Shown here: positions 52-43,764 of the stretch, in pieces
Layout: the number at the start of each line of letters is the position of its first letter
Numbering within the stretch: position 1 is the first letter of the stretch
Source: Escherichia phage EK5
DNA length: 64,000 bases
Sequence record: PQ805429.1
Direction: 5' to 3' (one strand)
Program-made: the position numbers and the translations under genes
Notes under the pieces: generated by a model
The model's input: only the letters and a program-made list of their open reading frames with translations
The model's database searches: none
Told to the model about the DNA's origin: nothing

Positions 52-1544
<1,493 letters not shown>

Positions 1545-4547: not shown

Positions 4548-4872
4548 GAACTGACATGATCACACAAGCAGATAAAAACAAGCTCTTCGACTTAATCCAT
4601 GACCTACTAGAAGCTCAGAGCTTTATTGATAATGCCGATACTTGGGAGATGGAAGCAGCTGGAAAAGCTTTTGATGAAAGTGAAGAGAAACTTACTAATT
4701 TTATAAACACAATCTAGGAGGGTATATGAATGAAGAAGTTGTTATCCTTGGAAGTAAATCGGATTGGTTCTATGGAGGCATCTCAGGATGCTTTGAAGAT
4801 GAACATCCAGACTTCTGAAGAGAATTGGGATGTATGACGAATTTGATGGTTTTTAAAACTTAGAAACAAATA

Positions 4873-4906
4873 AAGCCCCTTCCTTTCGGTTGGGGCTTTT
4901 CTTTTA
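4873..4906. terminator. Bidirectional rho-independent terminator between convergent blocks
   Basis: AAGCCCC ... GGGGCTT hairpin flanked by T-runs on both strands; sits between the rightward block and the end of the leftward late block. Confidence 0.6.
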
Positions 4907-7900
4907 TCACTCCTTAGGTCGAACTCTTACACGGAGTCTCGATTGACGCTTACTGCGTTCAAGCTTCTCTGACAATGAGCCACGTTTAATCTTAGGCTTC
5001 CCTTCGTCATTAAACTTCTCCAAGAACTGCAAGTACTCAGTACGATTTGTTGTCTTGTAAGAAGGAATCTTGATATCAGGATTCTCTTCAATCACACGTC
5101 TCATCTTCGCTACATCATCCCTACCAAGCAACTTACTCTTAGCCTGTTCAGCTGTAGAACCAAAGATTTTCTCCAGTGCTCTAGATTTGTTACCACCTGC
5201 GGACGAAGCACCAAGTTTAGCAATGGCAGAGTAATCATCAGCACTAAACCAAGCTACTGGATTATCACCATACTTCTTCTTGTTTTCAGCAGCAGTCTGC
5301 AATGCACGTACAAAGCGACGGTTGTTACCAGCCTTATCTGCACCATGAACCCTGTCTAAAACTTCAGCCACACTAGCCAACTCATCCAAGCTCTTCCCAC
5401 TCAAGAAAGCTTTCTCTACTTTATCAGCAAAGACCTCTTCCTGTTGTTTAATGCTTTCCAAGATATCAGAATTTGCTTGAGATTTTTCATCATCAGGCAG
5501 AGCAGAACGAATCTTCTCCATCTCCAATTCTTCCTCTTGCAGTTTCTTAATATCAGAGTCAACCTTCTGAGCCTCCTCAATAGCCTTCCTAGTATCCGCA
5601 TCCAAGTTATCAAGCTTACCTTCAGTATCTCCAGTAACCTTAACAATCTCTTTCTCGATAGGAGTCATTGATTCGTACTTCTTAGCAAACTTCTCAACAT
5701 CAGCTTCGATACGAGAACGAGCATTCTGATGTTCAGTAGGAGTCATAGGTTTCTCAAGAAGTGCATAACGGTTGTCCATATAGGAACCAGCAAACGCTTC
5801 AGCATCCTCTCTAGATATGCCCTTATCTTCCATAGTACGCATCAGGCGGCGATGAATGTCATCACGTTGACGTTGTACTGCCATAAGATCATTCTCACGC
5901 TCTTGGGCCGCTTTAAGCTCTTCACTGCGCTTAACTCTCTTGTCCACATCAAACTTACGGTTCATCTCTTCCGCTTGCTCGTACATCTTGTTCCACTTGG
6001 CCTGACGAGCATCTTCCTCTGCATCAGTTAAACGACGCTGACGATCAAGGTAATCTGACTCGGCGTTGTGGATACGTTCAATGTAACTACGGAACTTCTC
6101 TGGAGGAACTGGAGAGTTCTTGTCATGGTGAGCAGCCAACTGTTTCAATGTACGAGATTCCTGAGCCTCACGAACAGGTTTAGGTAAACCTTCCATCATC
6201 TTCTCAATCTCACTCTTCTGAGCTGCAATAGCCTCTAAAGTTTTACGTTCATTCTCAACAGCAGCCTTAGCATCTGAACGAGCCTGAGCCTTTTTCCTGA
6301 GGGTAGCAAGACGTTCTTCACGAGCCTGTAAGTGCTTAGCAGCAGCTTCGTATTGAGAGTTCTTGTTAGCTTTGTTGAAGGCATTCACTTCTCTGTTGTA
6401 GGTGTTAATAAACCCATCCCAAATATCCTTCATCTGACCAACTTCCAAAGCCTCTTCCCTACCAGCCTTCTCTGAAGATTTAAACTTCCCATCTACAAAG
6501 TCATTCATCAGCTTACGCATAGCATCTTTCTGAGCAGGACGTAAAGGTTCTGAATCAATCAAAGCATCAATCTCAGACTGAAGCTCTTTCTTCTGATCAA
6601 CCAGTTTAGGAGCATCTTTCTTATCGAAAGCTTTGTTCTCTTCTAGAGCTTGTTGGTACAGTCTATCAAACTCATCCTCACGCTGCTTCTGATACAACCT
6701 TTCAGCACGACGTTTCAGACTATCCAAGTTAGTTACGTTCCCACCTAAACCTTTCTCTTCAGCACGTAATGCCTTAGTAGCAATGTCTTCTGGCAGACCA
6801 CGTTCTTTAACCCATTCAGCAAAATTAGTTCGTACAGTGTTGTTCTTAGCAGTAGCAATACCTTGCTGAGAGGCCAGCTGGTTACGAGCCATTTCTTCAT
6901 GACGTTCAGTGTTGATAGCATTATCTTCCTGACGAATACGACGCATCAGTTCCTTAGGATCGCCTTTATAAGCCAAGAAGTTTTCAGCAGTAGCTTTAGC
7001 TTTAGCAGCCTTAGAGTACAGAGAACGAGCAAAGCGTTCTGCACGATCTTTAGTAGCCTGACGAGCAGCACTAGACATAGCAGCTAAACGTTCTACACCA
7101 CTTGCCGGTTTAACGTCCTGTACAGCTTCCTTAGGAGCTTTAGGAGCACGAGCAGGTAATGGCTCAGCTTTGACTGTTGGTTCCTCTACGGTTGGTTCTG
7201 GAGCCTGTGCGGCCTCTTCTTGAGCACGTTGCTGTTCCATTGCACGACGCTCCTCTAGAGGGTTACGAGCAGGGAGAGGTTCAGCCCGTGGAGCTTGTTC
7301 GACCGGAGCTTCTTGAGCTGCTGCTGCCTCTTCTTCAGCGCGACGCTGTTCAGCCTGACGGATAGCGCGTCTTTGCGCAACTAAATCACGAGCTGTGAGA
7401 GGGGTTTCTTGAGGAGTAGAAGAAGGAAGATTTTCTTCCGTCACAGTACTAGAAGAAGGCTCCCGAACCGGTTCGGTTTCCACGTCATTTTGCGTCTTAA
7501 ATTTAATGTCATCAACAACTGGTTCTTCTTCCATCTTAGCACGAGCTTCATCAGCAGTAGATTTAGCACGAGCAACTTCCAAATCACCACGAGCCAGAGA
7601 GCGGATAGCTTCACTATTAGACTCTTGTTGCTTAACACGTTGAGAACGGGCACGCTGAGAAGAGAAGCGATTCAGAGCATATTTAGCAGCACCGAGAGTG
7701 TTCATCACCAGACTAGGAGAAGAAGCCTCACGGAATCCATCATCAGTCAAGGAAGTCCAACCACGATCTTGGTTGCTCATGAATTTAGCTGTATTGTTCA
7801 GAGTGTAAGCATCTTGAATAGGATTAAAACCTTCAGGCATACCTTTCAGTTTCTTCAACCCACCAATAGCTTTCTTCATCTCTGGAGAAACATTATCAGC

Positions 7901-9328
7901 CATCTTCTGTAGTTCAGCAGCTTTCTCTACAAAGTTATTAAAGTCTTCACCATCACGAGCTTTGAATCGATTTGCTTCATTGTAGAAAGTCTTGTAAGCA
8001 TCAATGAAATCACGGTCAGCTTGTGTACGATTCTTAATATCAATCGGACTACCAGTAAAATCACCAGAAGCTCGGAGAGAAGTTAATTCACGGTCTAGGT
8101 TATCTAGAACATCTGTAAGAGCTTTCGTATTGTCTTTGGTGTAATCAGCCATTGCATCCTTCATAGCAACAGCCTGCTTCTGGTTGTGCTCGTTGTCAGC
8201 GAATGCTTTACCACGAGTCTTAGCAGGAGAAGCTAAAGGGTTGAGGCCCGGAATGTTGGAATGTTCTTTCTGAACGGAAGCAGCTTTCTCAGCACGAGCT
8301 TGGTCAGTATTAAGAATACGCTGAGCAGCAGGAGAGTCTACAGCAACAGCATCTGTAATACGGAATCCATTCTCATCCAGAAGGTTCAGAGCAGAAGCAG
8401 CGTTAGCAGTTTCAGCTTTAGAGTAAGCTTCTTTCAGTTCATCAATATTCTTAGCACTACGAATTAGTTCATCATCAGCAGCAATATCAGTCTTCGCATA
8501 CTCTGGAGTGTTCTTGAAGACAGTAGAATCCGGACGGCTAATCAAACCATGAACCCCACCAACTGCACCACCGAATGCAGCACCCATAGCCCCTTCTTCG
8601 ATAACACCTTCCAATGTCTTAGCTAGATCGTTGTCGTCGCCATACTTGTTCTGAACTTCAGCAGCACCCACAAGAGCACCACCTTTAGCACCAGCCACTG
8701 CGTTACTAGCAACGTTCTGACCAATACGTCCAAGTGTGGACTCAGCTGTACCAACAGCACCCGGAAGGATTCTCTGAGCCGCATAGTTAGCACCACCAAC
8801 TAAGGCTGCATCTAGAATAGACTTATCCTCTCCCTCTTCAGGGGTTTGGTCTGCATATGCACGACCTGTCTCACGACCTGCGATGATAGCAGCAGCAGCC
8901 AATGGGTTAGCAACTGTCAAACCGATATCACCAGCAACGCCAGCATACTGACCGACAGTTTTACCAATCCCATCCTCAATCTTATCCATACGTTCTTTCA
9001 GAAGGTTCTGAGAGTTCTCTTGGATACGCTTACCATAACTAGTTTGTGCTCCAGCTAGATTCTCACCAATCTCAACTAAACCACCAATACCTTTAGCAGC
9101 ACTAGCTGCAATATTTGCACCACCAGATTGAAGAGCATTTGACACACCTTGAGCAAACTCACCTATAGCACCACGTTCTTCTTGTTGTGGTTGTGCTACT
9201 GGTTGTTCCTCAGGAATAGAGCCACCTGCTGCCTTATATTGTTCTCTCATTTGAGCTTGTTGCTCCGGAGAGGCATTCAGATACGCAGGAGCTTTGGAAG
9301 CTTCTTCCCACGGTTTAATGTTAGCCAT
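4907..9328 (-). CDS. Large virion internal/ejection protein or tape-measure-like protein (1473 aa)
   Basis: Start at MANIKPWEE with SD AAAGGAG; long coiled-coil E/K/R/A-rich regions plus a G/A-rich hydrophobic segment; last gene of the late block. Confidence 0.55.
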   Translation of the reverse strand: MANIKPWEEASKAPAYLNASPEQQAQMREQYKAAGGSIPEEQPVAQPQQEERGAIGEFAQGVSNALQSGGANIAASAAKGIGGLVEIGENLAGAQTSYGKRIQENSQNLLKERMDKIEDGIGKTVGQYAGVAGDIGLTVANPLAAAAIIAGRETGRAYADQTPEEGEDKSILDAALVGGANYAAQRILPGAVGTAESTLGRIGQNVASNAVAGAKGGALVGAAEVQNKYGDDNDLAKTLEGVIEEGAMGAAFGGAVGGVHGLISRPDSTVFKNTPEYAKTDIAADDELIRSAKNIDELKEAYSKAETANAASALNLLDENGFRITDAVAVDSPAAQRILNTDQARAEKAASVQKEHSNIPGLNPLASPAKTRGKAFADNEHNQKQAVAMKDAMADYTKDNTKALTDVLDNLDRELTSLRASGDFTGSPIDIKNRTQADRDFIDAYKTFYNEANRFKARDGEDFNNFVEKAAELQKMADNVSPEMKKAIGGLKKLKGMPEGFNPIQDAYTLNNTAKFMSNQDRGWTSLTDDGFREASSPSLVMNTLGAAKYALNRFSSQRARSQRVKQQESNSEAIRSLARGDLEVARAKSTADEARAKMEEEPVVDDIKFKTQNDVETEPVREPSSSTVTEENLPSSTPQETPLTARDLVAQRRAIRQAEQRRAEEEAAAAQEAPVEQAPRAEPLPARNPLEERRAMEQQRAQEEAAQAPEPTVEEPTVKAEPLPARAPKAPKEAVQDVKPASGVERLAAMSSAARQATKDRAERFARSLYSKAAKAKATAENFLAYKGDPKELMRRIRQEDNAINTERHEEMARNQLASQQGIATAKNNTVRTNFAEWVKERGLPEDIATKALRAEEKGLGGNVTNLDSLKRRAERLYQKQREDEFDRLYQQALEENKAFDKKDAPKLVDQKKELQSEIDALIDSEPLRPAQKDAMRKLMNDFVDGKFKSSEKAGREEALEVGQMKDIWDGFINTYNREVNAFNKANKNSQYEAAAKHLQAREERLATLRKKAQARSDAKAAVENERKTLEAIAAQKSEIEKMMEGLPKPVREAQESRTLKQLAAHHDKNSPVPPEKFRSYIERIHNAESDYLDRQRRLTDAEEDARQAKWNKMYEQAEEMNRKFDVDKRVKRSEELKAAQERENDLMAVQRQRDDIHRRLMRTMEDKGISREDAEAFAGSYMDNRYALLEKPMTPTEHQNARSRIEADVEKFAKKYESMTPIEKEIVKVTGDTEGKLDNLDADTRKAIEEAQKVDSDIKKLQEEELEMEKIRSALPDDEKSQANSDILESIKQQEEVFADKVEKAFLSGKSLDELASVAEVLDRVHGADKAGNNRRFVRALQTAAENKKKYGDNPVAWFSADDYSAIAKLGASSAGGNKSRALEKIFGSTAEQAKSKLLGRDDVAKMRRVIEENPDIKIPSYKTTNRTEYLQFLEKFNDEGKPKIKRGSLSEKLERSKRQSRLRVRVRPKE

Positions 9329-9395
9329 AACGTCTCCTTTTATAAATAAAAATGTCCTACCCCCTATATACATTATGGAAGGCAGGACTTAGGTC

Positions 9396-11051
9396 TTATT
9401 GAGTAAACCAGCTAGTGTCTTCGACAGCTGATAAAGCACCATTAAGCTTAGGATTGGTTGCTGCACCACCAACTGCTTCTTCTGCTTGTTCAGAGAAAAC
9501 ACCTAGAGGGTCATAGAAACCACCAGAAGGGATTGCACGGTTAACCAATGCAGTAGCTCTCTTCTTATCCATACCAGAACCGATGTAAGCTTCAATCGTA
9601 GCTCTCTTAGCATCAGCAACACCTTTCATTGCAGAGGTGTGACCAACGTTAGCTTGCTTACGAGCATAAGCAAGAGCAGAATCAGTAGGACGCCATCCAG
9701 ACTTCAGTGCAAACTTGTTGCCAACACGAACGAAGATTGATGGGTCTTCTGCAAAGTGCCCCAAGTCTTCTTCGGTAAGAGAACGAGTAGCACCGATTTC
9801 AGCCCTTGCGGAGTTCATGATAGCCTGCATGTAAGCAGAACGAGCTGTCTGATAGTCTTTATCCTTAACAGCCTTATCAGCCAAATCCAAGTCTTTATTA
9901 GACTGGTTAAACAGGCCACCTTTCTCTGCCCACTGCTTAGCAACCGTACCTTCAGCTGTATTCTGAGCAAGACGAACTTCTTTCGGGTTAAAGTTAAAAC
10001 TCTGAGCAGCTTGTTCAGCACGTTCAGCCTTAACCTTATCACGATAACCAATCAACTCTTTCTGACGTTCAAAGTTCATGTTAGCTCTTTCTTCAGCGGC
10101 ACGACGAGTTTCATCAGCACGCTCACGCATAGTTTGCTCTTGAATCTGTTGACGTCTATCCCATTCAGCATTTTGTCGTTCTTCACGAGCAGCATACAGC
10201 GCTTCTTTCTGAGCAGGGTCTACAGCTCTCATCTTCAGTAGAGACGGGTCTCCGTTAGCAATAGCAGCTGCGATTGAGTCTTGAGAGAAGCCTTGTTCAA
10301 TCAGAGCATCACGGTTAGCTTCCAGTTGCTTCTTAGTCTCATCTTGATTAGCCATTCCCTGACCAATCTGGAAAGCTTCAATAGGAGACTTACCTGACAT
10401 AATGGAAAGACCTACACCCATCAAACCTGTGTAGAAACTGGAGTTTTGGTAGAATGGTTCTTTCTGTAGTTTGTTCCAAGCTTCCGAAGGGTCTTTAGCT
10501 TTCGCAACTTGCAAGATATCATTGTTAACACGTTCCTGATCTTTAGCACGAGTAGCAGCAGTCATTCCATCACCAGTGTCTTGTCCTTGAGCAAGAGTGT
10601 TAATCACACCTTGTGCCTGTTCCACCTGAGAAGGAGTAAACTCCATAGGACCAGCTTCTAACGGTTTAGTAGGAGGTGTTACCGGAAGAGGGTCACTAGG
10701 CATAAGCCCAGCATCCTGTAAACCTTGATCAGTGGATAGGTTAGGGTTAGACGCTACAGGGGCCGGTGCTCCAATATCAATACCCTGAAGACTGGTAGGA
10801 GTTCCTTGATTCTGCTGTTCCATAAGACGTTGCTGGAACCCCGGATTAACCATAGCATCCTGATCTTCTTCTGCCTGAGAGACAAGACCCGCAAGAGATG
10901 AAGGTACAGCAGGACGTTGATACATAGAAATATCTGCTGTCTGAGTTGGTCTAGCCATATAAGGAGAGGCCGAAGCCGCTCCCGGATTAACACCATAGAA
11001 AGTATTTCTCGGGTCACGACTTCTGACCTGAGCGTAAGTTGTCTGTTGCAT
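9396..11051 (-). CDS. Virion internal protein (551 aa)
   Basis: Position among internal/tail genes; no catalytic motif recognised. Confidence 0.45.
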   Translation of the reverse strand: MQQTTYAQVRSRDPRNTFYGVNPGAASASPYMARPTQTADISMYQRPAVPSSLAGLVSQAEEDQDAMVNPGFQQRLMEQQNQGTPTSLQGIDIGAPAPVASNPNLSTDQGLQDAGLMPSDPLPVTPPTKPLEAGPMEFTPSQVEQAQGVINTLAQGQDTGDGMTAATRAKDQERVNNDILQVAKAKDPSEAWNKLQKEPFYQNSSFYTGLMGVGLSIMSGKSPIEAFQIGQGMANQDETKKQLEANRDALIEQGFSQDSIAAAIANGDPSLLKMRAVDPAQKEALYAAREERQNAEWDRRQQIQEQTMRERADETRRAAEERANMNFERQKELIGYRDKVKAERAEQAAQSFNFNPKEVRLAQNTAEGTVAKQWAEKGGLFNQSNKDLDLADKAVKDKDYQTARSAYMQAIMNSARAEIGATRSLTEEDLGHFAEDPSIFVRVGNKFALKSGWRPTDSALAYARKQANVGHTSAMKGVADAKRATIEAYIGSGMDKKRATALVNRAIPSGGFYDPLGVFSEQAEEAVGGAATNPKLNGALSAVEDTSWFTQ

Positions 11052-20540: not shown

Positions 20541-20632
20541 TTGAGTGTCTCCTATATATTAACCTCTTGGGATATATTAGTTTCATTACTTACTAAGGGT
20601 ACTCACTACTAAAGCCCCCGAAGGGGCTTATA

Positions 20633-25661: not shown

Positions 25662-26414
25662 TTATACACGAGAAGTACGAATACCATAAATATCAGGCAA
25701 GCTGCTCTGAAGTCGAGTCATGTTATTCGGAATTGCGATAGGTGAACCTGAGTACTCTTGTTTCTTATTCTGTTCTACCATTTCATCAAGGATAGCTTTT
25801 CCTAATGCTGACCATTTCTGAACACCATTATCATCTTGAACAAAGAGACAAGCATGACGTAGGGTGAAGTACAGAAGAAGTTCTGGTGCTATAGTAAGAA
25901 TAGTACTAGTATCTGTATCTTCATGGAATTCCGGTGGGTCTGCATAATAGCTAAGAATCACTGAGTTTTCTGCTGGAATCAAAGGGCTTCCATCATCAGG
26001 GTAGTACGGAGTATCTGCTTCGATGCTAGGGTAGAAAATGAAACGACTACCGAAACGAGCAAAGTTGACAGGTTGGTTATTCCAGTGAGATGGGTTAATT
26101 GTTCCATGCTGTCTACGATAGCTAATCTCTTCAGGAGAGGTTACTTGGAAGATTGTGCCATCTTTGGCTCTCATCATCCATTGAGCTTCTAAGTAATCAG
26201 GAGGAATGTAAGCTACTCCATCTTTAATATCTAAATACACTTCTTTTTCCAGAGGAGGAATACGTAAGTTACGATAAATCTCTTTCTCTGCAAAGTTAAT
26301 AAAGTTTGGAATTTGATTAACAAATTCGTCATCGTCCCTATCTGCCCAGAGGGCCACGGCCTTCTTTAGCCACCCATAGGTATTGATGGGGTATTGAACA
26401 TCTGGCATTGCCAT
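25662..26414 (-). CDS. Virion structural protein (possible adaptor or tail tubular component)
   Basis: Position between capsid and tail-fibre genes; SD AGGAGG; terminator and TAATGTATA motif upstream. Confidence 0.4.
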   Translation of the reverse strand: MAMPDVQYPINTYGWLKKAVALWADRDDDEFVNQIPNFINFAEKEIYRNLRIPPLEKEVYLDIKDGVAYIPPDYLEAQWMMRAKDGTIFQVTSPEEISYRRQHGTINPSHWNNQPVNFARFGSRFIFYPSIEADTPYYPDDGSPLIPAENSVILSYYADPPEFHEDTDTSTILTIAPELLLYFTLRHACLFVQDDNGVQKWSALGKAILDEMVEQNKKQEYSGSPIAIPNNMTRLQSSLPDIYGIRTSRV

Positions 26415-26515
26415 AGGTTGTCCTCCTTGTTATATGTAGACAAAGAATATACATTACACACTGGCTTGTATAGGTCTTAAAACGAAAAAACCCCGCCCGA
26501 AGGCAGGGTCTAGTT

Positions 26516-33376: not shown

Positions 33377-33850
33377 TTAACTCTCGTCCGCTTCCTCCCC
33401 CTTTTCAGCGTCCTCAGAGTTGTCTTCTTCTGGAGGCATAACGTCGATACCAAGTGCTCCAGTCAAGAAGTCCTTGATTTGTGCATTCAATGATTCTTCG
33501 TTGATTACATTCTCTTCCTCAATCTTAACTTCAACAGAGGCCGCCTTAGGATATACCAGATCTGCAACTTTTGATGCAGCCTTGAATCTAAGATCAGGTG
33601 GAATATTAGGATCTTCGTAAATTTGAATTAACACTTCATCAGGAGACAAATGACTTGCAGCAACACGGTCCAACATTAATTGTGTCAGTTTACCTCTACT
33701 ACCTCTGGGTCGTCCGAATTTATTTCCCTTTTGAAACTTCCCATTGCTTGGGTTCATACCACGGCTTTCGAGTTCTTCCGTTACTCCGGGTAATCTTCCT
33801 GTAATCTCAGCTACCTGTGCAGGCGTGAGTTCTCCGTTTTCTCCAAACAT
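33377..33850 (-). CDS. Putative terminase small subunit
   Basis: Upstream of large terminase; N-terminal HTH-like LTPAQVAEITG; acidic C-terminus. Confidence 0.45.
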   Translation of the reverse strand: MFGENGELTPAQVAEITGRLPGVTEELESRGMNPSNGKFQKGNKFGRPRGSRGKLTQLMLDRVAASHLSPDEVLIQIYEDPNIPPDLRFKAASKVADLVYPKAASVEVKIEEENVINEESLNAQIKDFLTGALGIDVMPPEEDNSEDAEKGEEADES

Positions 33851-33906
33851 TTTATACTCCTTCTACATTATCAACAACACAAAAAGCCTCCCAACGGAGG
33901 CAAATA

Positions 33907-35963: not shown

Positions 35964-36836
35964 ATGTCTAAAGTAGCAATTAACCACTTGAACAAAGCAA
36001 ACGAAAGCCTTTCCTCTTTAGGCTTAACCGTTGGTAGTCCTGATGCGTGGATGGAAAACGAAAGTGCACGTAAAGGATTCAAAAACTCAATCATGTTGGC
36101 TTGCTTGATCATCAATTCTACTGCGAACGCTTTACAGTGTGAAGATGAAAGCACGTTCAAAGAGAACGGTTTTACCGATATGCAGGACGCTATTAATTGC
36201 TACATTCAGGCTAATTTAGATAGCTGGAATCAGAAAGATTGGCCTGAGTCGTGCCGTGATGTGAAAGCTGAATTATCCCGCTTGTCTGTCATGGTTGAAG
36301 CATGGAACAAGAAAAACAAGAAACAGCCAATCAAGCCTACTGTTGCAAGTAAGATTATGAAGTCTGTTAATCTGGCAAGTTATGCACTGGTTGCAGCTAT
36401 TGGTGTTAGTGCACTGGTCACATCTCTTTCTGATAAGGCTATCGCTAGTCCTACTCCTGCAACTGATGCCGCTGATGTTTTCGCTAGTTCCATCAATAAG
36501 GGTTGGATGATTTGCAACGGTGCGGATAGTGATGGAAGTACTATTGTATTAAAAATGAAGTTTAGCAACGTAACTAATGATGGCGTTCTCTTTCAGTCTA
36601 AGACACTAGACAATCAGCCTAACAATGATCTAGTTCTCAAGCGCACCGATAGTGACTCGGATATGGTTACATTTGGCACTGTACAACGTTACGAAGACGT
36701 TAAAGCTGTAACCAATCTAGTGAGTTATGGTCCGGTTAATGAGTCGATGATCGCCACTACCGTTTATAATAACGCTGATAACGCTGTTTATACCGTTCAC
36801 GTTAATTTAGCCAACTGCATTAAGGCTAGTAAGTAA
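35964..36836 (+). CDS. Early protein with central hydrophobic segment
   Basis: First gene after the promoter; predicted TM VNLASYALVAAIGVSALVTSL. Confidence 0.5.
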   Translation: MSKVAINHLNKANESLSSLGLTVGSPDAWMENESARKGFKNSIMLACLIINSTANALQCEDESTFKENGFTDMQDAINCYIQANLDSWNQKDWPESCRDVKAELSRLSVMVEAWNKKNKKQPIKPTVASKIMKSVNLASYALVAAIGVSALVTSLSDKAIASPTPATDAADVFASSINKGWMICNGADSDGSTIVLKMKFSNVTNDGVLFQSKTLDNQPNNDLVLKRTDSDSDMVTFGTVQRYEDVKAVTNLVSYGPVNESMIATTVYNNADNAVYTVHVNLANCIKASK

Positions 36837-43467: not shown

Positions 43468-43764
43468 ATGACTTTAGAAGTATATAAATTCCTTTTTGTA
43501 AGCTGTTTAACTATCAGCGTTCTAGGATTTATTGTTCTCAGAAACAAAGCAGCAAGCTGGGAAAGAATGTATAAATCCCTAGTTCGAGTGGATGAGATGT
43601 ATAACGAGAAGGTTAAAGTAACACTCAACGATCTTATTATGCAAGTTGAAGACAGAAACAAACGTCTTCAGAACCTCAATCATGAAGTGTTGCGACTTGC
43701 TCGTGCTAATGAAGACTTACGAGTGGCTATTGCTAAGCAGCAGGAGATTAACAGTGAAAGTTAA
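43468..43764 (+). CDS. Membrane-anchored coiled-coil protein
   Basis: N-terminal TM FLFVSCLTISVLGFIVL followed by coiled coil. Confidence 0.45.
   Translation: MTLEVYKFLFVSCLTISVLGFIVLRNKAASWERMYKSLVRVDEMYNEKVKVTLNDLIMQVEDRNKRLQNLNHEVLRLARANEDLRVAIAKQQEINSES

Follow-up and report, generated by a model that had tools for sequence, protein, structure and literature searches.

Two genes in the genome of Escherichia phage EK5 are preceded by the same 9-mer, TAATGTATA, which raises the question whether this sequence is a promoter element and, if so, which RNA polymerase reads it. The analysis was carried out on 64,000 nucleotides of the phage (sequence record PQ805429.1), hereafter called the window, and the features discussed below are collected in Table 1. 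On the minus strand, two exact copies of the 9-mer were found, one at 9375..9367 and the other at 26456..26448, and none occurs elsewhere in the window. The first is separated by 38 nt from the ATG at 9328 of a 1473-aa ORF (4907-9328) and the second by 33 nt from the ATG at 26414 of a 250-aa ORF (25662-26414). The original prediction, made from the sequence alone, had placed two minus-strand copies 34-39 nt before these start codons, the second just after a terminator, and both statements were borne out, a terminator-like hairpin at 26511..26488 lying directly upstream of the second copy.

The number of copies is in itself uninformative. In the whole window, 2 exact copies were counted against 0.70 expected, a value reached or exceeded in 16 of 100 shuffles and not significant, and one-mismatch copies showed no enrichment (16 versus 20 expected). 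On these counts the 9-mer might have occurred twice by chance in an AT-rich genome and have no function. The placement of the copies argues against this reading, as both are intergenic, co-oriented with the downstream gene and located 20-60 nt before its start codon. This target zone comprises about 3% of strand-positions, and the calculated expectation for copies falling in it is 0.02 (P ~2e-4). Of the proposed genome-wide search with positional enrichment, the positional part was thus confirmed and the numerical part was not, and the significance of the 9-mer derives from position and orthology only. A second exact 8-mer, AAGACCTA, is common to both copies and lies at a fixed spacing, 14 nt upstream in each. 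In addition, the 9-mer is conserved in relatives whose flanks have diverged: at the upstream site of the 1473-aa gene it was exact in 13 of the 13 relatives inspected, and at that of the 250-aa gene the relatives inspected carry either exact TAATGTATA or TAATGTATT, even where the flanking genes and gp13 are just 78-80% identical.

The window comes from a Kuravirus (Gordonclarkvirinae) and shares about 97-98% identity with many Escherichia phages of the phiEco32 group. In comparison with phiEco32 (NC_010324) it is reverse-complemented and circularly permuted, with genes running from 37 to 27 on the plus strand, from 26 to 1 on the minus strand and then from 128 to 73 on the plus strand, and the 250-aa and 1473-aa genes match phiEco32 genes 13 and 26 in length and order. 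Six gp36-dependent promoters have been found experimentally upstream of phiEco32 genes 6, 13, 26, 40, 58 and 68, all sharing one conserved element, tAATGTAtA, with transcription starts 6-8 bp downstream (PMC8948821). Table S3 of that paper, which covers six phiEco32-like phages, gives TAATGTAgA for P6, TAATGTATA for P13, P26, P40 and P58, and aAATGTATA for P68. The 9-mer has been called the experimentally determined consensus (PMC4331800), the SU10 genome paper says likewise, and AATGTA is centred at -11.5 (PMC12276001). The similar motif of sigma-encoding coliphages mentioned in the original prediction corresponds to this published consensus (PMC4331800, PMC8948821).

Both sites in the window carry this consensus with its invariant AATGTA core as exact TAATGTATA, both precede the homologs of genes 13 and 26 in the orientation of these genes, and the upstream sequences align base for base. 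Compared with phiEco32 P13 and P26 (Pavlova et al. 2012; Lavysh et al. 2022, PMC8948821; Xu et al. 2025, PMC12276001), the same 9-mer precedes the same downstream genes, the flanks differ by 0 and 1 base over about 50 nt, and the sigma factor and its co-activator are 100% identical. The window P13 is identical to that of phiEco32 from the terminator/-35 box through the leader, with one base different in the ~130-nt upstream region. The P26 region differs by a single base, C for T at -17 (position 9377), and nothing substantial distinguishes the two systems. The two TAATGTATA copies are therefore almost certainly the -10-type elements (-15 to -7) of late promoters homologous to P13 and P26. This orthology effectively refutes a chance origin, which we regard as extremely improbable also because the 9-mer equals a promoter consensus derived by experiment. 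The element is already known: promoters of its class have been characterised both by experiment and by structure, and the phage carrying it here is nearly identical to the model phage.

Table 1. Promoter elements, associated hairpins and relevant genes in the window.
Feature	Position	Strand	Basis
Phage sigma factor gene (gp36 homolog)	515..1159	+	214/214 residues identical to phiEco32 gp36
Hairpin AGCCCC..GGGGCT with T-run after gene 26, A-run flank; shape of a bidirectional terminator	4863..4900	-	Terminators on both strands at the corresponding location in the SU7 record
Gene 26 homolog (1473 aa), in the unit transcribed from P26	4907..9328	-	ORF list; length and position as phi32_26
15-bp hairpin (9388-9354, loop AUGUA) followed by ATTTTTATTT, P26 -10 at its apex; putative terminator by shape	9344..9388	-	Folds, alignment, pair counts
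Predicted P26-homolog start ~G9360, leader ~32 nt	9359..9361	-	AATGTA at -11.5, starts 6-8 bp downstream
-10-type element TAATGTATA (-15 to -7), P26 homolog	9367..9375	-	Exact; identical to phiEco32 P26 at 26014
AAGACCTA box, -37 to -30 of P26 homolog (putative -35 region, includes -34A)	9390..9397	-	Invariant in 10/10 relatives aligned
Candidate gp36-type promoter before holin: TTAGTAGT (-39 to -32) and TAATGAAAC (-15 to -7); predicted start ~20573	20580..20612	-	Conserved boxes and spacing; matches RRNAS-N18-AATG
Gene 13 homolog (250 aa virion structural protein), first in P13 unit	25662..26414	-	ORF list, phiEco32 comparison
Predicted P13-homolog start ~G26441, leader ~27 nt	26440..26442	-	Published geometry
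-10-type element TAATGTATA, P13 homolog	26448..26456	-	Exact; P13 in Table S3 of PMC8948821
AAGACCTA box, -37 to -30 of P13 homolog	26471..26478	-	AAGACC and spacing kept in relatives
Intrinsic terminator-like hairpin after head-gene block, immediately upstream of P13	26488..26511	-	10 pairs and T-run; -23.2 kcal/mol, z -4.0
-10-type element TAATGTAGA of P6-homolog late promoter	33862..33870	-	Identical to phiEco32 P6; TAATGTAgA/P6 in Table S3, PMC8948821
Terminator-like hairpin GCCTCCGTTGGGAGGC with T-run just upstream of P6, containing P6 -35 region	33886..33901	-	z -2.9
gp79 homolog, sigma-70 holoenzyme inhibitor and gp36 holoenzyme co-activator	58957..59205	+	82/82 residues identical; function from PMC12276001

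The same genome encodes both cognate protein factors, gp36 with its DNA-contact residues and the co-activator gp79. As gp36 is identical at 214 of 214 residues, every DNA-contact residue named in PMC12276001 is present in the window, namely E79, H80, Y83, R84, W90, S91, S94, N95, Y186 and R187. In the published work, the gp36 N-terminal domain contacts A-14 (N95), A-13 (S91), T-12 (S94) and G-11 (E79 and H80), W90 and Y83 stack at the fork, and in the P68 cryo-EM structure the C-terminal domain contacts positions -37 (R187) and -34 (Y186) (PMC12276001). The gp79 protein displaces sigma-70 region 4, stabilises the gp36 C-terminal domain and raises in vitro transcription from P26, the gp36-dependent late promoter used in those assays, about four-fold (PMC12276001). 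The suggestion that the 9-mer belongs to a late promoter, and that the sigma factor of the phage may recognise it, was thus upheld by the homology to P13 and P26 and by the complete identity of the gp36 encoded at 515-1159.

According to the literature, the switch operates as follows. Early in infection, the genes for the sigma factor (515-1159 in the window) and gp79 (58957-59205) are transcribed by the host sigma-70 RNA polymerase. By displacing sigma-70 region 4, gp79 shuts off host and early transcription, and gp36 associates with the core polymerase of E. coli. The N-terminal domain of gp36 reads A-14, A-13, T-12 and G-11 of AATGTA, with the DNA opened from -11, and the C-terminal domain, stabilised by gp79, contacts the -35 region (-37 and -34). 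In the window, starts would fall about 7 nt past the 9-mer, at ~9360 and ~26441. The sequence comparison shows directly that the promoters and both protein factors match those of the characterised system, and the start sites, timing and unit boundaries given for this phage are those that the comparison predicts. The structural and lysis functions encoded downstream, together with the published class of P13 and P26, point to a late class for the transcripts. Directly upstream of the phage sigma gene, a sigma-70-type promoter, TGGACA-18-TATAAT, was observed at 464-493 on the plus strand, in agreement with the SU10 description.

The TAAT of the 9-mer could also end a TATAAT-like -10 hexamer (CATAAT at P26, TGTAAT at P13), in which case the sites would be host sigma-70 promoters or would be read mainly by sigma-70. 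The P26 site in phiEco32 and in Suseptimavirus relatives indeed reads TATAATGTATA, containing a perfect TATAAT, the GenBank record of 4E8 has a 'promoter' ending at this site, a sigma-70 scan gives the P6 site a score of 9/12 as TTGGGA-16-GATAAT, and the authors of the SU10 paper suggest that the first late genes are expressed in two ways. However, the consensus scan called no site at 9367-9400 or 26448-26480, and no TTGACA-like -35 hexamer occurs at 17 +/- 1 nt from these hexamers, the -35 and -10 elements of sigma-70 promoters being 16-18 nt apart. The window itself has CATAAT at P26, owing to the C at -17, a base carried by the window and LAMP and replaced by T in phiEco32 and most relatives. 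Moreover, gp79 shuts off sigma-70 transcription during late-gene expression and the gp36 holoenzyme transcribes P26 in vitro (PMC12276001). That the sites are sigma-70 promoters, or are read mainly by sigma-70, is accordingly very unlikely.

The P26 copy of the 9-mer is also part of a hairpin. The sequence GTCCTGCCTTCCATA-ATGTA-TATAGGGGGTAGGAC, followed by ATTTTTATTT, folds with -21.8 kcal/mol in the window, where the C at -17 that converts the overlapping TATAAT also opens one pair. In Suseptimavirus-type relatives the stem is a perfect 15-bp helix (z -2.3 to -3.1). Across the 6 distinct sequences, 97.8% of cells were paired, and the 5 pairs that vary do so on one side and all stay paired; for this pair count the shuffle control was uninformative. 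No double-sided compensatory change was found among the 6 sequences, and covariation consequently does not prove the hairpin, the support coming from one-sided, pairing-preserving changes only. The copy at 9367-9375 might then be there mainly as a palindrome, TATA-ATGTA-TATA, that caps the terminator hairpin of the preceding operon, its match to a promoter being secondary, as the 15-bp stem, the 5-nt loop, the T-run and the retention of pairing in relatives would indicate. Against this interpretation, terminator and promoter roles are not mutually exclusive, P26 is reported to work as a gp36 promoter both in vivo and in vitro, the AAGACCTA box in common with P13 is correctly spaced and not part of the hairpin, and the hairpin itself is the structure for which compensatory evidence was not obtained. 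A primary role as a hairpin tip thus has hardly any probability, and the copy is better described as the -10 element of P26 lying within a putative terminator. As the predicted P26 start falls in the 3' arm, P26 transcripts would lack the hairpin, and read-through transcripts from gene 25 would meet the terminator. With the P26 -10 at the apex of the terminator ending the P13 operon, read-through would terminate and P26-initiated transcripts would escape. At P13, the stem of the upstream terminator differs in sequence among relatives, with pairing kept.

The 8-mer shared by the two sites falls in the -35 region. In Bas89, EK010 and TH42 the 14-nt spacer of P13 has diverged, yet AAGACC and its 17-nt distance to AATGTA are kept. 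When the six phiEco32 promoters are set in register, A occurs at -34 in all of them and purines at -37 and -36 (RRNAS). Both window promoters have A at -34, and at -37 they have A as against the G contacted in the P68 structure. Promoters of the P13/P26 type have been described as single-element (PMC8948821), the -35 contacts having been demonstrated for P68 only (PMC12276001). The conservation of AAGACC at the right spacing is suggestive of a -35 element at P13 and P26. The phiEco32 middle promoters P40, P58 and P68 have the same AATGTA core and the same gp36 holoenzyme as reader; they are of the middle class, not the late one, lie outside the window, which ends in the gene 73 homolog, and differ in their -35 regions (e.g. 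TTGGTAGT in P68, versus AAGACC at the window P13 and P26). AAGACC (-37 to -32), being distinct from the middle-promoter -35 regions, could help to set late timing or strength. A further AAGACCTA, abutting TAATGTTTA at 432-448, was rejected as a chance match; it is located within the coding sequence of the gp37 homolog, no spacer separates the two elements and the 9-mer core is broken.

Two one-mismatch variants of the 9-mer, noted in the original prediction near 33862 and 20553, were located at 33870..33862 (TAATGTAGA) and 20561..20553 (TAATATATA), and had both been dismissed as too close to their start codons to be promoters. For the first the dismissal did not hold, as this is the homolog of the published P6. 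At gene 6, the P6 homolog and the Shine-Dalgarno sequence overlap, and the published geometry predicts a start at ~33855, downstream of that Shine-Dalgarno sequence and only ~5 nt ahead of the ATG annotated at 33850. Because of this proximity, the transcripts would mainly serve gene 7 onwards, or would provide a near-leaderless gene 6 mRNA, or translation would begin at an internal start (Met32), codon 32 being the next in-frame Met of gene 6. The dismissal of the second variant stands for a different reason: TAATATATA has A at the contacted -11G, and its place is taken by unrelated sequence in Bas89 and EK010 and by a changed one in ES17. It is probably a chance occurrence.

A few other occurrences of related sequences were recorded. 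The crude gene calling leaves an apparent gap that contains GAATGTATA (43565-43573), but in phiEco32 the counterpart of this sequence lies within the annotated gene 116. Outside the window, phiEco32 has a further exact TAATGTATA at 36704-36712 on the plus strand, in the gene 40/41 spacer. This copy is preceded by an TTGGTAGTAGATAT block, the same block with the same spacing as at P68; it is antisense to the middle genes and is absent from the published list of six promoters.

Scans of IMG/VR, for which gp13, the N-terminus of gp26 and the endolysin served as queries, returned only 5-6 phiEco32-like contigs each, the endolysin matches coming mostly from unrelated phages. In a distant clade with gp13 about 55% identical (contigs L066 and L067, 82-90 kb), TAATGAATA-type motifs are located upstream of late genes at equivalent places (L066 positions 1474, 2771 and 9961; L067 positions 1439 and 9962), which suggests that the sigma factor of this clade reads AATGAA rather than AATGTA. 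At L066 position 2771 the motif abuts the ribosome-binding site, as it does at P6.

A candidate for a further promoter of this type was identified before the holin gene. It consists of the block GTAATGAAACTAnTATATC, in which TAATGAAAC occupies 20588-20580, and of TTAG(T/G/A)AGT at -39 to -32. In 10 genomes the two conserved boxes are held at fixed spacing, with three different spacers between them. The pattern RRNAS-N18-AATG occurred 4 times against 0.24 expected in 1059 nt of late-cluster intergenic DNA; three of these four matches are the known promoters that yielded the pattern, so that only the fourth is independent (P ~0.2 alone). As the distant clade uses TAATGAATA at its P13-equivalent site, AATGAA cores do exist in the wider family. 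The SU7 record has no promoter annotated at the holin site. From these conserved boxes, the TTAGTAGT-N-TAATGAAAC block may tentatively be proposed as a seventh gp36-type promoter, although we consider this rather unlikely; if it is one, a weaker, AATGAA-core promoter (20612-20580) would drive the holin and endolysin genes. It is similarly doubtful that the AAGACC -35 box of P13 and P26, the P26 -10 at a terminator apex and the seventh gp36-type promoter will all hold together. The ATG within TAATGAAAC could open a small ORF ahead of the holin gene; this ORF lacks a ribosome-binding site and is out of frame with holin.

For the annotation of this phage, the analysis places three gp36-dependent late promoters and hence late transcription units. 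The phiEco32 gp36/gp79 switch applies unchanged and no new biology is added, the points that might interest specialists being the location of P26 within a putative terminator, the AAGACC box common to P13 and P26, and the candidate promoter of the lysis genes. The homologs of P6, P13 and P26, each of which lies just after or inside a terminator-like hairpin, would split the late region of the window into three units. P6 would drive genes 6-12 (packaging and head), up to the terminator at 26511-26488, P13 would drive genes 13-25 (tail, lysis and ejection), and P26 would drive gene 26, the unit ending at the hairpin at ~4900-4863.

Other phages achieve a comparable redirection of the host enzyme by different means. 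In Salmonella phage 7-11 and Cronobacter phage GAP52, a phage-encoded sigma factor likewise directs the host core RNA polymerase to late genes that occupy equivalent genome positions. However, their late promoters have a bipartite consensus, GTAAtg-N16-aCTA, read by SaPh711_gp47, the sigma factor is just ~15% identical, and these phages have no gp79 homolog and no middle class (PMC8948821). The AsiA/MotA system of T4 is similar in that a small phage protein disables sigma-70 region 4 and a second phage protein supplies promoter specificity (PMC12276001); T4 keeps sigma-70 and adds MotA, whereas the phiEco32-type system replaces sigma-70 by the phage sigma factor. Finally, gene 26 and the last middle gene converge, and the hairpin at 4863-4900 lies in the interval that separates them.
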